Origin: a phage
Direction: 5' to 3' (one strand)
DNA length: 32,167 nucleotides
Assembly: GCA_021683455.1 (NCBI GenBank)
Contig: GCA_021683455.1_3051.2
Shown here: in pieces, positions 948-27,238 of the stretch
Position numbering within the stretch: the stretch's first letter is position 1
Layout of the letters: each line of letters starts with the position of its first letter
Notes under the pieces: generated by a model
Seen by the model: the letters and a program-made list of their open reading frames with translations, nothing else
Database searches by the model: none
Told to the model about the DNA's origin: nothing
Position numbers and translations under genes: made by a program

Positions 948-1541
948 ATGAACACACTGAAGAAAATTGTTGAGTTTATTCGCACTAAACTTGGTTCTGC
1001 TATGGCTAAAAATCTATCTGTTGAAGAGCAGTATACTGCTGCGGCAGCAAAACTACTTGATAAAATTAAAGACCTAAAAACTGCTTCTATTAAATCTATT
1101 AATGAAGAAAAACGTATTCGTGAACTTATTGTCGAAAAGAATAAGCAGGCCGAATCAAAAGAGCGTGAAATTCGCAAGCTCCTTTCTGAAGGTCAAGACG
1201 TAACAATGCATGCTAAACTCGGTTTATTATATCGTCGAACAGCTGAGCAGTTGACTACTAAAGCTGATGGTTATGCTGAAATGCGAATTGAAATTGCCAA
1301 GAAAGTAGTTGAGTTAGATGATGCTCGTCAAGAACTTGCAGTTAAATTGGAATATATCCGTGAAACTCGTGCAGCGAATGCCCTTGGAATTAGTACTGCT
1401 GATGATGTAGTTGAAATCGCAGCACTGACTAAGGTTGATATTGAAGACACACTTGCTCGAGTTGAAACCTTTAATGGCAATATTTCTGGGGTTGAAACTA
1501 CCTCTGCCGATGTTCAGGAATATATTAATTCTCTGAAATAA
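948..1541 (+). CDS. all-helical coiled-coil protein (e.6-position ORF); PspA/ESCRT-III-like layout, unverified
   Basis: AAGGAAA then ATG 948; 197 aa rich in K/E/A/L heptad-like repeats with N-terminal amphipathic segment. Confidence 0.6.
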
Positions 1542-1547
1542 TGATAA

Positions 1548-1561
1548 GGGGCTTCGGCCCC
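1548..1561 (+). terminator. GGGGC-TTCG-GCCCC tetraloop hairpin after e.6 (no clear U-tract)
   Basis: Perfect 5-bp GC stem with UUCG loop. Confidence 0.4.
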
Positions 1562-1582
1562 TATTACTTGGAGTAAATAGGA

Positions 1583-2191
1583 ATGAAAATGCAAAGTGAT
1601 TTCAATTCAATGTTTGAAGAGTTCCAAAGACAAGTTGATGTTCCAGACCAATTATTAAATGCTCTTAAACGTATGGCAGAAGGACGTAATTATTATTGGG
1701 GTTCTTCATATGAAACTGATGAAAGTCTTTCTGGAAGATTTTCTAGAGGTAAAAAGTCTTTAATACGTCCTGGAATACTTATTAACAGTATTGAATCAAT
1801 TCATTCATTAACATGTGATTTTGATGTTGAATTTACTGATTTCATTTCTCCTGAATGGACAGTATGTTATTTAAACGACGATTATGATTATCTTGGCGTT
1901 TATAGTTTAAGTGATGCATGGTTTAAACGTAATTTACAAAAGTCAAATTTATTCTATATTGATACTACTGTAAAATTTCAGGGCAAGAAATATTTCTTTA
2001 CTCTTATAGTTGATTCTGAAACGAAGCATGAAAATAAACGTATTCTTAGTAAAAAGAATATCTTAACTATTGTTGATGATCTTTTTGATAAATTCGTAGA
2101 AAATCCCAATTTTGAAAGCGATTTATTATTAGAAAAATTTGTTAAGGAATGTAGAGAATATGTCAAAGCCATCACTATACCTTCCAAGTAA
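1583..2191 (+). CDS. hypothetical protein (e.5-position ORF)
   Basis: 202-aa ORF; alternative ATG at 1589; C-terminal FVKECREY tail resembles tails of the next three ORFs. Confidence 0.55.
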   Translation: MKMQSDFNSMFEEFQRQVDVPDQLLNALKRMAEGRNYYWGSSYETDESLSGRFSRGKKSLIRPGILINSIESIHSLTCDFDVEFTDFISPEWTVCYLNDDYDYLGVYSLSDAWFKRNLQKSNLFYIDTTVKFQGKKYFFTLIVDSETKHENKRILSKKNILTIVDDLFDKFVENPNFESDLLLEKFVKECREYVKAITIPSK

Positions 2192-2552
2192 ACCGTTGAA
2201 GTATGAATTAAAGCGTCAGATAATTTCTACTGATGTGTTAATAGGTCCTGTGGTAGCCGTATCATTTGTGATTCTGCTGATTGCTGGAATGGTTATAGAC
2301 GTTATGACTGATATTGAATCTGGTGCAATATTTGGAGCAACACTAATTCTTCCATTGGTAGTTCCGCTTTTATTAGTACCTATAAATTGGATAGGATATT
2401 GGTATCAAGGAAGACACTATCGTAAACGTGTACGTGATTGGAAAGCTCAGTGTAAAAAGATTAAAAAGGAACATCAGCTTAAACTTGCTGCGCATGAATT
2501 TGATGAAATTATGAAATTTGTTAAGGAATCACGATGCAAAAGCCAAAACTAA
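2160..2552 (+). CDS. small two-helix membrane protein (e.4-position ORF)
   Basis: First ATG 2160 after AAGGAA (track 2139 is TTG); two hydrophobic segments then basic tail ending FVKESRCKSQN. Confidence 0.55.
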   Translation: MSKPSLYLPSKPLKYELKRQIISTDVLIGPVVAVSFVILLIAGMVIDVMTDIESGAIFGATLILPLVVPLLLVPINWIGYWYQGRHYRKRVRDWKAQCKKIKKEHQLKLAAHEFDEIMKFVKESRCKSQN

Positions 2553-2896
2553 ATAAAGTCAAATATTCGCTTCCTGAGTCATTTTTAATTTTTGCTGTGG
2601 CGTTGGCTGCAGCTCTTGCGGGTAGTCTTTTTGGATTGTTAATTGACTGTATTATTTTAAACATCGACGGCACAGTAAATATAATAGAAGTTTGGAGTGA
2701 ACTTCACTATACTAAAATTATTTCATTATTTTCATTCTTTGGTACCATGTTATATTTTCATTATGATAATTTTAAAATAAATTGGCAAAGAAAAAAGGAT
2801 TACAAAATACAATTAAAGGAATATAACAACTACATGTCTTATATTGAAAAAGAATCAATGGAAGAGTTTGTGAGTGATTGCAGGAAAATTAAATGA
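2534..2896 (+). CDS. small two-helix membrane protein (e.3-position ORF)
   Basis: ATG 2534 after AAGGAA; hydrophobic segments; tail ends FVSDCRKIK; stop overlaps next start (ATGA). Confidence 0.6.
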   Translation: MQKPKLNKVKYSLPESFLIFAVALAAALAGSLFGLLIDCIILNIDGTVNIIEVWSELHYTKIISLFSFFGTMLYFHYDNFKINWQRKKDYKIQLKEYNNYMSYIEKESMEEFVSDCRKIK

Positions 2897-3381
2897 TTTT
2901 AAAAACTCGCTGGTATGATTTAGATGATGGGGATGATGGCATTTCAGTTAATAGAGTTGACTGGAATGGTTGTTCCGAAGATATGAAAAATTTGTTGATT
3001 AGGGAGTTTAGAATGGGATATCAAGCAGCTAAGCCATCTATTATAACAGATGATAAGTTCGTGTGTATTCATAATGGTCGCGCTAAGTTAACGAACGCTG
3101 ATTGGTTCACAGATAAAATTATGATTCTGTGGTATATTATTAGTCTTCCTGTGACATCATTTGTATTTTGCTTCTTTGGTGAAAGTCCAATAGGCAGAAC
3201 AGGAGATTGGATTCTTTTAATTATGCTTGTTAATATTTTGACAGCAGCAATATTATCAGGAATGTGGTGCGTGTTCATTGAAATGCCATGGCGTTTACGC
3301 AGACAGCAAAAGATTTTTGATGAAAAGAAATACGCTCAAAATTTAAATAGCTTTATCACTGAATGCAGGAAATTAAAATGA
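2893..3381 (+). CDS. membrane protein (e.2-position ORF)
   Basis: ATGA overlap with upstream stop; soluble N-terminal part then two hydrophobic helices; tail ends FITECRKLK. Confidence 0.6.
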   Translation: MILKTRWYDLDDGDDGISVNRVDWNGCSEDMKNLLIREFRMGYQAAKPSIITDDKFVCIHNGRAKLTNADWFTDKIMILWYIISLPVTSFVFCFFGESPIGRTGDWILLIMLVNILTAAILSGMWCVFIEMPWRLRRQQKIFDEKKYAQNLNSFITECRKLK

Positions 3382-3818
3382 AAACACTATCAACTGGTAT
3401 TATCTTTATGACAGAAGATAAAGATTTATTTATGGGTCGGGTTACTGGTTCTCGTAAGCCTGGAATGATGGCACATCGCTGGGATATTCCAAAGGGCCGT
3501 GTAGAAAATTCCGATTTAAGCGCATTAGATGCAGCACGAAGAGAATGTTTAGAAGAGACTGGTTTTAGCAATTATAATCCAGACCTTCTAGAAGACCTAG
3601 GTGTATTTAAATATTCTAGTAATAAAGACTTACAGTTATTTTATTATACGATTCCAGTAGAGCATGAGATGTTCAGAAATTGCCATTGCGAGTCTTATTT
3701 TGAAAATAAAGATGGCGTTATGATTCCAGAGATGGACGCTTTTGCTCTTATTCCTCGTACTCAGTGGCAATATGTGATGGGTCCTTCACTTTACCGAATA
3801 ATGAACAACCTCTTTTAA
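3378..3818 (+). CDS. nudE: Nudix hydrolase
   Basis: Nudix box GRVENSDLSALDAARRECLEETGF; ATG 3378 has AGGAA 7 nt upstream and overlaps upstream stop; position next to e as T4 e.1/nudE. Confidence 0.8.
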   Translation: MKTLSTGIIFMTEDKDLFMGRVTGSRKPGMMAHRWDIPKGRVENSDLSALDAARRECLEETGFSNYNPDLLEDLGVFKYSSNKDLQLFYYTIPVEHEMFRNCHCESYFENKDGVMIPEMDAFALIPRTQWQYVMGPSLYRIMNNLF

Positions 3819-4349
<531 letters not shown>

Positions 4350-4353
4350 AGTT

Positions 4354-4384
4354 GTTTACTTTCTCCTAGAATTGTGATAGTATA
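4354..4384 (+). promoter_or_regulatory. early promoter-like element upstream of ip gene (GTTTAC 4354-4359; TAGTAT-like -10)
   Basis: Sequence pattern only. Confidence 0.4.
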
Positions 4385-4437
4385 TTCACAGTTGCTTGAA
4401 GAGACAAATTACTAATTAAAATATTTAAAGGAAACAC

Positions 4438-4707
4438 ATGAAAACATATCAAGAATTTATCACTGAAGCAGCTATTAATTCTCAAATTATTGCTGAATCT
4501 TTTACTGATCTTTTGAAATTTAAAAAAGGTCAAAAAATCACTGCTGTATTGGATGATGGTACAGAAGTTGAGATGGATGTACAGGGATATAATTATGCAG
4601 TAGATGGAAAACTGTATAATAAATCTCATGCTAAATTTGATTCATTTGACGACTTTGTTAATACAGTTGAAGATGAAAAAAACTCGTCGATCCATTGTAA
4701 CTGGTGA
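4438..4707 (+). CDS. internal head protein (IPII/IPIII-like) with capsid-targeting sequence
   Basis: N-terminus MKTYQEFITEA matches the conserved capsid-targeting sequence of T4 internal proteins; AAAGGAAA SD; T4 has ipIII/ipII at this position. Confidence 0.65.
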   Translation: MKTYQEFITEAAINSQIIAESFTDLLKFKKGQKITAVLDDGTEVEMDVQGYNYAVDGKLYNKSHAKFDSFDDFVNTVEDEKNSSIHCNW

Positions 4708-26943: not shown

Positions 26944-27238
26944 GATTGAAGTCTATGGAATTCCAGATGAAGTAGGTCGTTGTCCTGGATGTCAATCAGT
27001 TACAAAACTTCTAAAGGAGCTCAATGCTCCTTTTACTTTCTATAAAGTTCTTACTAATAATGGTAAGATTGAGTACGATCGCCCATTGATTGTATCTCTT
27101 GCTAAACGCGCTGGATTCACATCTCTTAATATTCGGTATCCTGTCATTTTCATTAATGATTCTAGACAAAAGAACATTAAACACTTCAAAGAAACTCTCA
27201 TTTCACTTGGATATGATAGAGATATCATAGAAGACTAA
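26915..27238 (+). CDS. nrdH: glutaredoxin-like protein (NrdH-like); start codon uncertain
   Basis: Domain begins KIEVYGIPDEVGRCPGCQ (CPGC redox motif); no in-frame ATG after upstream stop, candidates GTG 26915 or upstream ATG 26816 within previous ORF. Confidence 0.5.
   Translation: MEQNSNLKNKIEVYGIPDEVGRCPGCQSVTKLLKELNAPFTFYKVLTNNGKIEYDRPLIVSLAKRAGFTSLNIRYPVIFINDSRQKNIKHFKETLISLGYDRDIIED

Follow-up and report, generated by a model that had tools for sequence, protein, structure and literature searches.

Repeated gene junctions in the e.5-nudE region of a T4-like phage: a shared C-terminal peptide motif overlapping translation-initiation signals as a probable explanation

Introduction

In the phage DNA analyzed here (a stretch of 32,167 nucleotides, hereafter the window) four consecutive genes preceding a Nudix hydrolase gene end in similar DNA, and the question raised by this locus is why the same short sequence should recur at successive gene junctions. 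A first-pass annotation proposed that each repeat encodes both the tail of the upstream protein and the Shine-Dalgarno sequence of the downstream gene, and that whole cassettes including their junctions had been duplicated. With the help of comparative sequence analysis we examined the repeats, the peptide encoded by them, the relationships among the genes and the natural variants of the locus.

The Locus and Its Gene Families

The source phage is a Tequatrovirus (T4-like) with 97.9% DNA identity to the nearest Tequatroviruses and 93.6% to T4 across positions 1400-4000. The gene names from e.5 to nudE were assigned on the basis of the former identity and the T4 annotation:

1583..2191, forward strand: e.5 gene, 202 aa, soluble, ending in ...LLLEKFVKECREYVKAITIPSK (ORF list, T4 annotation, phrog_2607 with E = 3e-110)
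2160..2552, forward strand: e.4 gene, 130 aa, overlapping e.5 by 32 nt, tail ...IMKFVKESRCKSQN (phrog_2604)
2534..2896, forward strand: e.3 gene, 120 aa, overlapping e.4 by 19 nt, tail ...ESMEEFVSDCRKIK (phrog_2330)
2893..3381, forward strand: e.2 gene, 162 aa, intact, tail ...NLNSFITECRKLK (phrog_2203)
3378..3818, forward strand: nudE (e.1), Nudix hydrolase gene (Pfam NUDIX, E = 2e-13; T4 annotation)

The last of these, nudE, is the gene 3' of the last junction and lies outside the set of genes sharing the tail motif described below. T4 has the same genes (e.5, e.4, e.3, and e.2; NP_049741 to NP_049738) in identical order, flanked by e.6 on one side and nudE/e on the other; T4 e.2 is shortened to 102 aa, whereas the e.2 described here has its full 162 aa.

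The e.4 protein belongs to PHROG 2604 (phrog_2604, E = 5.2e-70, residues 1-130 of 130). PF26873 is precomputed on e.4 homologs at 96% identity, and no match of e.4 to PF26873 was obtained with the local Pfam copy. The e.3 and e.2 proteins gave full-length matches to PHROG 2330 (phrog_2330, E = 1.7e-60) and PHROG 2203 (phrog_2203, E = 2e-77), respectively; all 45 homologs of e.3 were at least 69% identical, and PF26896 was present on 51 of 51 homologs of e.2. These families are limited to Tequatrovirus, Mosigvirus, and a few relatives, and the e.5 to e.2 products are all annotated as hypothetical or predicted membrane proteins. The name sulfurtransferase/rhodanese, which is attached to some NCBI homologs of e.3 and e.4, was rejected as a source label without domain support, since no sulfurtransferase domain was matched in Pfam or NCBIfam at E-values up to 1. 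Searches with the PADLOC anti-phage defence profiles gave no match for e.6, e.5, e.4, e.3, or e.2 at E-values up to 0.01. Both e.2 (in T4, SG1, and G9062) and e.5 (in ZN18) are often broken, and the genes are therefore dispensable in many lineages.

Repeated DNA at the Gene Junctions

All of the repeat strings claimed previously were found at the e.5/e.4, e.4/e.3, e.3/e.2, and e.2/nudE junctions:

2135..2150, forward strand: junction repeat copy 1, AAATTTGTTAAGGAAT, coding for K-F-V-K-E of the e.5 tail (motif F-V-K-E-C-R at 2138-2155)
2514..2529, forward strand: junction repeat copy 2, AAATTTGTTAAGGAAT, coding for K-F-V-K-E of the e.4 tail (motif at 2517-2534)
2867..2896, forward strand: junction repeat copy 3, TTTGTGAGTGATTGCAGGAAAATTAAATGA, coding for F-V-S-D-C-R-K-I-K-stop of e.3, with an ATGA overlap with e.2
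3352..3381, forward strand: junction repeat copy 4, TTTATCACTGAATGCAGGAAATTAAAATGA, coding for F-I-T-E-C-R-K-L-K-stop of e.2, with an ATGA overlap with nudE

Copies 1 and 2 are identical at 16 of 16 positions. At the two downstream junctions the strings TGCAGGAAAATTAAATGA (2879-2896) and TGCAGGAAATTAAAATGA (3364-3381) both lie within a 30-nt repeat whose copies, spaced 485 apart, are 80% identical.

That each repeat combines codons of the upstream tail with the Shine-Dalgarno sequence of the downstream gene (AAGGAA or AGGAAA, 5-10 nt before the ATG) was confirmed. AAGGAA lies at 2144-2149, 10 nt before the e.4 ATG at 2160, and at 2523-2528, 5 nt before the e.3 ATG at 2534; AGGAAA lies at 2882-2887 and at 3367-3372, in each case 5 nt before the ATG of e.2 (2893) and nudE (3378). 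Stop and start codons overlap as ATGA at 2893-2896 and 3378-3381. Stop/start overlap together with a Shine-Dalgarno sequence inside the upstream gene at functional spacing is the arrangement of coupled overlapping genes, and translation across these junctions is predicted to be coupled.

Among 14 aligned phages nucleotide diversity rose from its minimum at the junctions (0.000-0.03; 0.000 for positions 2510-2539) to as much as 0.20 in the transmembrane cores, the most variable segments. Copy 1 was unchanged in 13 of the 14, the exception being RB14 with two synonymous changes. RNA structure was considered as a cause of the repeats and rejected: the junction folds were no more stable than those of shuffled sequences, and stable structure was absent at all four junctions (z-scores +1.1, +1.5, -0.9, and +1.3), as expected of open initiation regions.

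A C-Terminal Motif Shared by Four Consecutive Genes

The e.5, e.4, e.3, and e.2 proteins end in a common motif of approximately [L/I/M]-x-x-F-[I/V]-x-[E/D]-[C/S]-R-(K). The tails quoted in the first-pass annotation were correct (e.4 ...KFVKESRCKSQN, e.3 ...FVSDCRKIK, e.2 ...FITECRKLK), and the e.5 tail ends ...KFVKECREYVKAITIPSK. In the six-frame translation of the window the pattern F[VI]x[DE][CS]R was matched five times compared to 0.22 expected matches; four of the five fall in the C-terminal 25 residues of genes that follow one another directly, in a set of 46 ORFs with 90 aa or more, and the fifth, at 27149, lies inside an NrdC-like ORF and was discarded as a chance match.

The motif is also found in other genera. 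In RB69 the tails read ...FIMECREY... (e.5), ...FVKEIRCKSLNS (e.4), and ...NFIKECRK* (e.3), and ORF133c of that phage, located some 2 kb off and encoding a 101-aa protein with two transmembrane helices, has the ending ...NFIKECRGK*. The ending ...FIKECRK* is likewise found in e.2-like proteins of phage fDHCT2 and of IMG/VR contigs, where a protein-based scan yielded four loci and a scan with a DNA pattern for F-[IV]-K-E-C-R-K-stop five. The codons used for the motif vary (TTT/TTC, ATT/GTT/ATC/GTG, TGT/TGC, and AGA/CGA/AGG/CGT). Of the 32 metagenome matches to FIKEC[RS]K-stop two were real (RB69-like e.3, loci L022 and L047), the others being short open frames or an unrelated protein of 149 aa; the exact motif is therefore not widespread beyond T-even relatives. 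As a feature common to the four families it appears in no family annotation and was not found in the searchable literature. The shared tail motif is real and apparently undescribed, though it departs only modestly from the genome plasticity already known in phages.

Membrane Topology and Constraint

The earlier description of e.4, e.3, and e.2 as two-helix membrane proteins holds for e.4 and e.2, each with two clear hydrophobic segments, and has to be qualified for e.3, which has one strong and one weaker segment, the latter being modeled as a helix by AlphaFold2. In e.4 a basic N-terminus is followed by two transmembrane helices and a long basic cytoplasmic helix (AlphaFold2 helices 24-49, 54-108, and 111-128). 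In the e.3 model (helices 13-41 and 58-119) the first transmembrane helix is followed by the weaker hydrophobic helix, which runs on as one long helix to the C-terminus; the tail lies at the end of this helix and is the part modeled with the highest confidence (pLDDT 85-91), and the architecture of e.4 is similar. In e.2 the two transmembrane helices are preceded by a soluble domain comprising the N-terminal ~72 aa, and e.5 is without a hydrophobic segment (maximum 19-residue hydropathy 0.87). Hydropathy and charge counts and the AlphaFold2 models of e.3 and e.4 indicate a common architecture of N-in hairpin, long basic C-terminal helix, and tail, and the three membrane proteins are predicted to form an N-in/C-in two-helix hairpin followed by a basic cytoplasmic helix. 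When the e.3 model was compared with viral structures using Foldseek only weak matches to Straboviridae proteins of similar size were obtained (a Bp7 protein at 3e-3; a 126-aa HY01 protein, presumably the e.4 variant, at E = 0.63), and a fold this simple has no diagnostic value in such a search.

Synonymous divergence was uniform across segments (pS 0.16-0.20), and pN/pS was 0.09-0.18 in the C-terminal cytoplasmic parts versus 0.50-0.81 in the transmembrane cores. The possibility that the cores represent introgressed old alleles was unsupported in 13 phages, given the uniform pS and the non-synonymous nature of the excess diversity. A constrained cytoplasmic tail combined with fast-changing membrane cores would suggest that the proteins have an intracellular partner in common while their interface in the membrane or periplasm varies, a pattern as expected of exclusion or host-interaction proteins.

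Paralogy and the Age of the Junction Repeats

The proposal that whole cassettes were duplicated stands in part. The e.4 and e.3 proteins are collinear at the profile level: using profiles that included RB69 and other diverged members, hhalign aligned 108 collinear columns (E = 3.2e-5, score 33.7), and 200 segment-preserving column shuffles gave a null score of 16.2 +/- 3.7 with a maximum of 27.1. Both proteins also share an N-terminal M-x-K-P-x-L...K-Y, and on these sequence grounds they look like paralogs. In the comparison of e.4 with e.2C the reversed-sequence control outscored the real comparison; measured against the worst control, the E-value for e.4 and e.3 is therefore better by no more than a factor of about ten. 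Narrow-family profiles, which are shallow (Neff ~1.3), and pairwise BLASTP among e.4, e.3, and e.2 aligned only the termini. The proposal did not extend to the remaining members: e.2 and RB69 ORF133c share the tail and the architecture, and e.5, whose body is unrelated and soluble, shares the tail alone; for all three no similarity of the body to e.4 or e.3 was detectable, and only the last 13-18 residues align. When a set of 1.84 billion representative proteins was searched with the e.3 profile using HMMER, seven matches were returned, none of which was e.4-like or e.2-like; five were e.3-type or e.3-derived, and the other two (P0197, a repeat protein, and P0199, an apparent chimeric sequence) matched over a short stretch only.

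In its strict form the duplication idea would explain the repeats by recent tandem duplication or gene conversion of the junction DNA. This would account for the perfect identity of the e.5 and e.4 tails, which is restricted to Tequatrovirus (the RB69 tails agree at 11 of 16 positions, counted from printed sequences), for the start region ATGNNAAAGCCANNACTA (M-x-K-P-x-L) common to e.4 and e.3, and for the gapped alignment of about 60 nt between the e.3/e.2 and e.2/nudE junctions. However, the gene bodies between the repeats have diverged past BLASTP detection, the DNA similarity between e.5/e.4-type and e.3/e.2-type junctions is at the level of shuffled sequences, and an identical peptide combined with a forced Shine-Dalgarno sequence and an A+T-rich codon bias would yield identical DNA with a probability of about 10% (a rough estimate using the T4 codon bias). 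The motif is moreover older than the split between Tequatrovirus and Mosigvirus. Because it is present with different codons in the Mosigvirus RB69 and in phage fDHCT2, the identity of the junction DNA is, judged from these sequences, not a sign of recent duplication, and we regard a recent origin of the repeats as unlikely.

Peptide Versus Ribosome-Binding Site

An explanation that fares less well still, and that we consider improbable, is that the repeats are purely the footprint of ribosome-binding sites, with the Shine-Dalgarno sequence and the overlapping start forcing similar codons on genes of no shared ancestry and the peptide arising as a by-product without a role at the protein level. 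It agrees with the finding that every repeat has AAGGAA or AGGAAA at a distance of 5-10 nt from the ATG that follows, with the junctions being the least variable DNA of the cluster, and with the near invariance of third-codon positions in the e.5 and e.4 tails (polymorphic at 1 of 15 and 0 of 15 positions, respectively), where conservation could stem wholly from frame overlap plus the Shine-Dalgarno sequence. On the other hand the conserved F, I/V, C, and R fall outside the purine tract and are encoded by different codons in different members, and of the window's 46 ORFs with 90 aa or more just four end in the motif. In the last 15 codons of e.3 seven third positions are polymorphic within Tequatrovirus, yet F, D, C, R, and K are invariant. 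The peptide has furthermore outlasted relocation of the Shine-Dalgarno sequence: the changes from K-E to S-D in e.3 and to T-E in e.2 destroy AAGGAA, and AGGAAA is found in the R-K codons instead; in RB69 ORF133c AAG has become AAA, with a new GAGGAAA downstream, and the motif is kept; and RB69 e.5 retains F-I-M-E-C-R without AAGGAA. Because the peptide was kept through synonymous changes and Shine-Dalgarno relocation, both the protein and the RNA are under constraint; since the e.5 and e.4 tails are synonymously invariant, the relative weight of the two varies by junction.

In a genome with a G+C content of 34% short A+T-rich strings might also resemble each other by chance, an explanation we count as refuted. 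By rough calculation a repeated 16-mer somewhere in a 32-kb window of such composition is not very improbable, and many two-copy repeats of 11-17 nt in the region are clearly due to chance. The junction repeats, however, occupy equivalent positions, each at the end of a gene and read in the same register, local alignments of 100-nt junction windows scored 32 and 31 compared to shuffle means of about 16 (sd 2.5-2.8), scores reached by one and by none of 2000 shuffles, and the motif is over-represented, concentrated at consecutive C-termini, and conserved in other genera.

Natural Deletions and Chimeras

In natural variants the junctions behave as cassette boundaries, and the junction repeat acts as a recombination site. 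In at least 49 of 506 related phage records (one-piece records) e.2 is missing through an exact 485-bp repeat-to-repeat deletion; carriers include ZN18, RB32, RB33, PP01, and PST. The deletion junction is e.3-like on its left and e.2/nudE-like on its right, leaving a hybrid e.3 tail ...CRKLK; it joins two copies of an identical run of 6-9 nt (TGCAGGAAA or AGGAAA), and repeat copy 4 (3352..3381) forms its right-hand end point. In UFV11 and UFV05 the first 31 residues of e.4 are fused in frame to e.2 (e.4(1-31)::e.2), joined at a shared 7-nt TCCTGTG. Shigella phage vB_SsoM_113 shows an apparent e.5::e.4 fusion frame, which, if genuine, would link e.5 and e.4 in function. Seven e.2-less phages that were examined carried three junction haplotypes and no single common flanking haplotype; a single deletion event followed by recombination is also conceivable. 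No e.4-less phage arising from recombination between the 16-nt repeats was seen among the best 12 rows and the coverage classes of a spread sample, and not every junction repeat is therefore demonstrably recombinogenic.

Proposed Explanation

We consider it probable that the junction DNA is the footprint of two superimposed elements, a peptide motif and a region for translation initiation, in an old array of genes that are in part paralogous, and that it serves in addition as a recombination substrate. According to this explanation e.4, e.3, and e.2 would be small early-region inner-membrane proteins sharing with the soluble e.5 a conserved motif at the end of the C-terminal helix, with e.4 and e.3 being paralogous within the array. 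The ancestral motif codons may have been TTT RTT AAG GAA TGY MGN AAA TGA. In a tightly packed operon without promoters between its genes such codons would be in dual use, specifying the peptide and at the same time providing the Shine-Dalgarno sequence and the stop-start overlap by which ribosomes pass to the next gene, and because of this dual use the repeated junction DNA would mainly be the footprint of two constraints. Since one gene end after another carries this short sequence in frame, it would also be a substrate for short-homology recombination, which could remove or fuse whole genes while sparing the reading frame and the downstream ribosome-binding site. If this explanation is correct, some 25 nt would have three jobs, as peptide end, as ribosome-binding site of the next gene, and as in-frame recombination point, and this would explain how the small membrane-protein gene clusters of T-even phages are remodeled with expression kept.

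The tail itself may be a protein-protein docking or oligomerization element. A more far-reaching and rather doubtful version is that it acts as a common docking tag joining the fast-evolving membrane proteins e.4, e.3, e.2, and RB69 ORF133c and the soluble e.5 to each other or to one partner, its codons having been co-opted as a portable ribosome-binding and in-frame recombination site. If so, T-even phages could add, drop, and hybridize membrane-protein modules without breaking operon expression. The motif would also provide a concrete handle on four T4 ORFs for which no function was found described; its practical weight is limited by the narrow taxonomic range and by the frequent breakage or deletion of the genes.

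Comparison With Known Systems

Translationally coupled genes overlapping at ATGA are known from T4 early operons (e.g., Miller et al., 2003). The overlaps found here (ATGA at e.3/e.2 and e.2/nudE, 32 nt at e.5/e.4, and 19 nt at e.4/e.3), with Shine-Dalgarno sequences inside the upstream gene, are of this general kind; ordinary coupling sites are not known to carry a conserved peptide motif recurring at successive genes and across genera, whereas the present junctions have one.

Deletions between short direct repeats have reportedly been described in T4, for example in the lysozyme region (Owen et al., 1983; Singer and Westlye, 1988). The e.2 deletion (6-9 nt) and the e.4::e.2 chimera (7 nt, TCCTGTG) are similar to these. 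They differ in that the repeats involved here are functionally equivalent, in-frame gene ends, so that the products are still translatable and the downstream ribosome-binding site is kept, and in that the e.2-deleted form is common in natural isolates (about 10% of records).

The promoter-early stem-loop (PeSL) cassettes are described as agents of modular shuffling in those parts of T4-type phage genomes that are hyperplastic (Arbiol et al., 2010, PMC2839356; Comeau et al., 2014, PMC4122927), and as intergenic elements consisting of a sigma-70-like promoter and a terminator stem-loop. The junction repeats were rejected as members of this class because they match no promoter, form no stable stem-loop, and are located in coding sequence. 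A scan for promoter-like sequences gave 23 sites compared to 16.9 +/- 5.0 in shuffles, none of them on a junction repeat. The only strong hairpin was located at 1547-1562, between e.6 and e.5 and off the repeats. PeSLs and the junction repeats have in common that they are short conserved sequences recurring at gene boundaries where the accessory gene content varies, that they supply the following gene with expression signals, and that close relatives gain and lose genes through recombination at them; the 485-bp e.2 deletion in at least 49 records marks the junction repeats as indel end points in this sense. Unlike PeSLs, the repeats at this locus lie inside coding sequence and encode a peptide motif, and the signal carried by them (a Shine-Dalgarno sequence with a start overlap) is one for translation, not transcription. 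They would be a coding-sequence counterpart of PeSL cassettes should the docking-tag reading be true. If the explanation proposed above is correct, the concept of repeat-mediated modular shuffling, developed for intergenic signals of transcription, would also cover signals that are coding and translational.

Gene organization and junction repeats

The window derives from a T4-like phage, its positions 1500-3900 being 97.9% identical to several Tequatrovirus genomes, and the gene order of the cluster was set by the T4 annotation.

Genes of the cluster and its immediate neighbours
948-1541, + strand, e.6
1583-2191, + strand, e.5
2160-2552, + strand, e.4
2534-2896, + strand, e.3
2893-3381, + strand, e.2 (intact, 162 aa)
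3378-3818, + strand, nudE
3855-4349, + strand, lysozyme gene e

Successive genes of the packed part (e.5 to nudE) overlap by 32, 19, 4, and 4 nt, and a scan for promoter-like and terminator-like sites found none on any junction. Between e.6 and e.5, which lie 41 nt apart, a perfectly paired G+C-rich stem closes a UUCG loop (GGGGCTTCGGCCCC, 1547-1562). This hairpin is the sole strong structure of the cluster and is probably a transcript or processing boundary ahead of e.5; the equivalent position in phage G9062 is annotated as a terminator. Two candidate starts were noted for nudE: ATG 3363 (MQEIKMKT..., 151 aa), the start in the T4 RefSeq record, and ATG 3378 (146 aa), the start in many relatives, which follows an AGGAAA Shine-Dalgarno sequence at a distance of 5 nt and overlaps e.2 in an ATGA.

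The first-pass annotation had reported repeated DNA strings at the junctions from e.5 to nudE; the observation is real and its description accurate, each string being found at the position claimed, and its interpretation has to be adjusted. The repeats are not due to chance. AAATTTGTTAAGGAAT occurs in two copies (2135-2150 and 2514-2529; 16/16 positions identical), and TGCAGGAAAATTAAATGA (2879-2896) and TGCAGGAAATTAAAATGA (3364-3381) lie inside a 30-nt repeat with 80% identity, the copies being 485 nt apart. Local alignment of 100-nt junction windows gave scores of 32 and 31 vs ca. 16 ± 2.7 in shuffles, of which 1/2000 and 0/2000 reached the observed values. A six-frame translation of the complete window has five matches to F[VI]x[DE][CS]R (0.22 expected). 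Of the 46 ORFs of ≥ 90 aa, four that directly follow one another each have a match within their last 25 residues, and the fifth match sits inside an NrdC-like ORF.

Shared codon module at the gene ends

The codon layout of the C-terminal tails resolved into one shared module, TTT RTT AAG GAA TGY MGN AAA TGA (peptide F-[I/V]-K-E-C-R-K-stop), with AAGGAA as Shine-Dalgarno sequence and a stop codon that overlaps the ATG of the next gene. This layout and the Shine-Dalgarno spacing bear out the proposal that each repeat comprises both the upstream tail codons and the downstream Shine-Dalgarno sequence. The full, ancestral-looking module is unbroken in e.3 of RB69 (Mosigvirus) and in an e.2-like gene of phage fDHCT2. 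The variants in the window are F-V-K-E-C-R followed by 13 further codons running across the e.4 start (e.5), F-V-K-E-S-R-C-K (e.4), F-V-S-D-C-R-K-I-K (e.3), and F-I-T-E-C-R-K-L-K (e.2); in e.3 and e.2 AAGGAA is gone, and an AGGAAA within the R-K codons, 5 nt from the ATG, takes its place as Shine-Dalgarno sequence.

RB69 carries the tail motif in e.5, e.4, and e.3 and, ca. 2 kb away, in ORF133c, a fourth two-helix membrane protein with an NFIKECRGK end and a relocated Shine-Dalgarno sequence. An e.2-like protein with the motif exists in two versions, in fDHCT2 and in IMG/VR contigs. The gene families of the cluster are narrow, with the e.5 family found only in Tequatrovirus and Mosigvirus and ORF133c only in Mosigvirus-type records; other metagenome occurrences of exactly FIKECRK-stop are chance matches. 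On two metagenome contigs (L024 and L041) an unrelated 149-aa protein, the C-terminal half of which presumably resembles a RelE/Gp49-type toxin, ends in ...AEAFIKECRK-stop with an ATGA overlap with the next gene, and its terminal heptapeptide is apparently shared by coincidence.

Directly after e.3 in RB69 (positions 3755-4550 of locus L007) four consecutive small ORFs were observed. ORF138c, 137c, and 136c share a C-terminal W-V-[SA]-S-x-x-x-C-stop (WVSSPALC, WVASSHTC, and WVSSSYSC), ORF139c ends in ...VSQWYEK, and in two related loci (L011 and L013) the ORF139c and ORF138c frames are merged into one ORF with WVSSSALC at its end. ORF138c-136c are a second instance, in the same region, of a tail motif common to neighbouring genes.

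Peptide and RNA constraints

Sequence comparison argues that the tails are under RNA constraint and also under a genuine peptide constraint. The conserved residues F, I/V, C, and R fall outside the purine tract, the motif codons vary among members (TTT/TTC, TGT/TGC, AGA/CGA/AGG/CGT), and the motif is kept even where the Shine-Dalgarno sequence is shifted or weakened. Among 14 Tequatroviruses 7/15 third positions of the e.3 tail are polymorphic, with F, D, C, R, and K invariant. Since pN/pS was 0.09-0.18 in the cytoplasmic C-terminal parts vs 0.50-0.81 in the transmembrane cores and pS was even along the cluster (0.16-0.20), the tails are the most protein-constrained part of these fast-changing proteins. 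Nucleotide diversity had its minima at the junctions (0.000-0.03) and its maxima in the transmembrane cores (up to 0.20). Synonymous sites were frozen too in the tails of e.5 (1/15 third positions polymorphic) and e.4 (0/15), as expected because two reading frames and the Shine-Dalgarno sequence overlap there; a search for stable RNA structure at the junctions found none.

Replaced or strongly diverged transmembrane cores between a nearly identical N-terminal part and tail were observed in e.4 variants (P0132-P0135) and in e.2-like proteins (loci L010/L014 vs L009), examples of core divergence being a 131-aa e.4 allele (66% identity) and a 195-aa IMG/VR e.2-like protein compared with the 197-aa fDHCT2 one.

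Paralogy and protein architecture

The repeats had been taken to suggest duplication of whole cassettes including their junctions. The data support this only in part and argue against freshly duplicated cassettes; the gene array is old and partly paralogous: e.4 and e.3 are collinear at the profile level, whereas e.2, ORF133c, and e.5 align with other members in the last 13-18 residues only. With BLASTP and narrow family profiles the ends alone of e.4, e.3, and e.2 aligned; e.4 and e.3 profiles including RB69 and other diverged members aligned over 108 collinear columns (E = 3.2e-5), with a score of 33.7 vs 16.2 ± 3.7 (maximum 27.1) in 200 column shuffles preserving hydrophobic segments. The N-terminus M-x-K-P-x-L...K-Y is common to both proteins, and from these alignments we take them as paralogues. 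A reversed-sequence control reached E = 3e-4 in one profile comparison, and weak matches among these hydrophobic proteins therefore need caution. A search of 1.84 billion representative proteins with the e.3 profile gave no e.4-like or e.2-like match. The AlphaFold2 models of e.3 and e.4 have one simple architecture, a helical hairpin followed by a long helix to the tail, which in the e.3 model has the highest confidence; hydropathy and charge fit a predicted N-in/C-in topology.

As we read it, the identity of the junction DNA does not indicate recent duplication. The tail motif is older than the Tequatrovirus/Mosigvirus split, and the RB69 e.5 and e.4 tails match at 11/16 positions (manual count). 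By our estimate the same peptide, a forced Shine-Dalgarno sequence, and an A+T-rich codon bias would often result in identical DNA. The members of this old array have a constrained peptide motif in common at their C-termini, and we propose that its codons additionally provide the ribosome-binding site for the following gene and sites for in-frame recombination. As to how the tail acts, our best guess is docking or oligomerisation through the helix end, which would lie on the cytoplasmic side.

Recombination at the junctions and gene decay

Recombination at the junctions is the strongest support for viewing the genes as cassettes. One Tequatrovirus class (including ZN18, RB32, RB33, PP01, PST, and UFV-AREG1) lacks e.2 through a 485-bp deletion equal in length to the exact spacing of the 30-nt repeat. 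The deletion junction is e.3-like on its left side and e.2/nudE-like on its right, giving a hybrid e.3 tail (...CRKLK) and retaining the nudE Shine-Dalgarno sequence, and was present in one piece in at least 49 among the best 60 of 506 matching records. The seven e.2-less phages compared had three junction haplotypes and no single flanking haplotype in common, and these haplotypes suggest, rather than prove, that e.2 was lost recurrently. At the RB32 junction the TGT is of the e.3 type, so that the crossover in this phage falls within AGGAAA. UFV11 and UFV05 have an in-frame chimera of e.4 residues 1-31 and the membrane domain of e.2, joined at TCCTGTG, 7 nt common to both genes that encode the P-V opening the first transmembrane helix. 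No e.4-less phage formed via the 16-nt repeat was seen among the matches listed.

This accessory cluster decays frequently, and many lineages can clearly do without it: e.2 is disrupted in T4 (truncated to 102 aa), SG1 (+1 nt frameshift), and G9062 (-1 nt frameshift), and e.5 of ZN18 is frameshifted (143 aa). In the Shigella phage vB_SsoM_113 (locus L021, 178-1152) an e.5::e.4 fusion of 324 aa is annotated; there the A5 run that directly precedes the e.5 tail motif (ca. 2132-2136 in the window) has lost 1 nt, which shifts e.5 into the e.4 frame. This deletion may be a homopolymer sequencing error; the fusion, if real, would point to a functional link of e.5 and e.4.

Comparison with known systems

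The genes are the T4 ORFs e.2 to e.5, already known and uncharacterised, the homologues of which carry only Pfam or PHROG family labels without function; PADLOC profiles gave no match to the cluster proteins, and a literature search found no paper mentioning these tails. The name "sulfurtransferase" on NCBI homologues of e.3 and e.4 (P0002, P0007, P0051, P0058, P0074, and others) and the name "DNA primase" on one e.3 copy have no Pfam or NCBIfam model behind them and look like propagated mis-annotations. The e.2 deletion is similar in its chemistry to the classical short-direct-repeat deletions of T4.

The nearest described phenomenon is the modular shuffling driven by promoter-early stem-loop (PeSL) cassettes, reported from hyperplastic regions of T4-type phages, in which an intergenic sigma-70 promoter is combined with a terminator hairpin (PMC2839356, PMC4122927). 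Compared with PeSLs as described there, the junction repeats differ in lying within genes and in having no promoter-like site and no stable hairpin, but both are repeated boundary elements that bear expression signals and mark indels.
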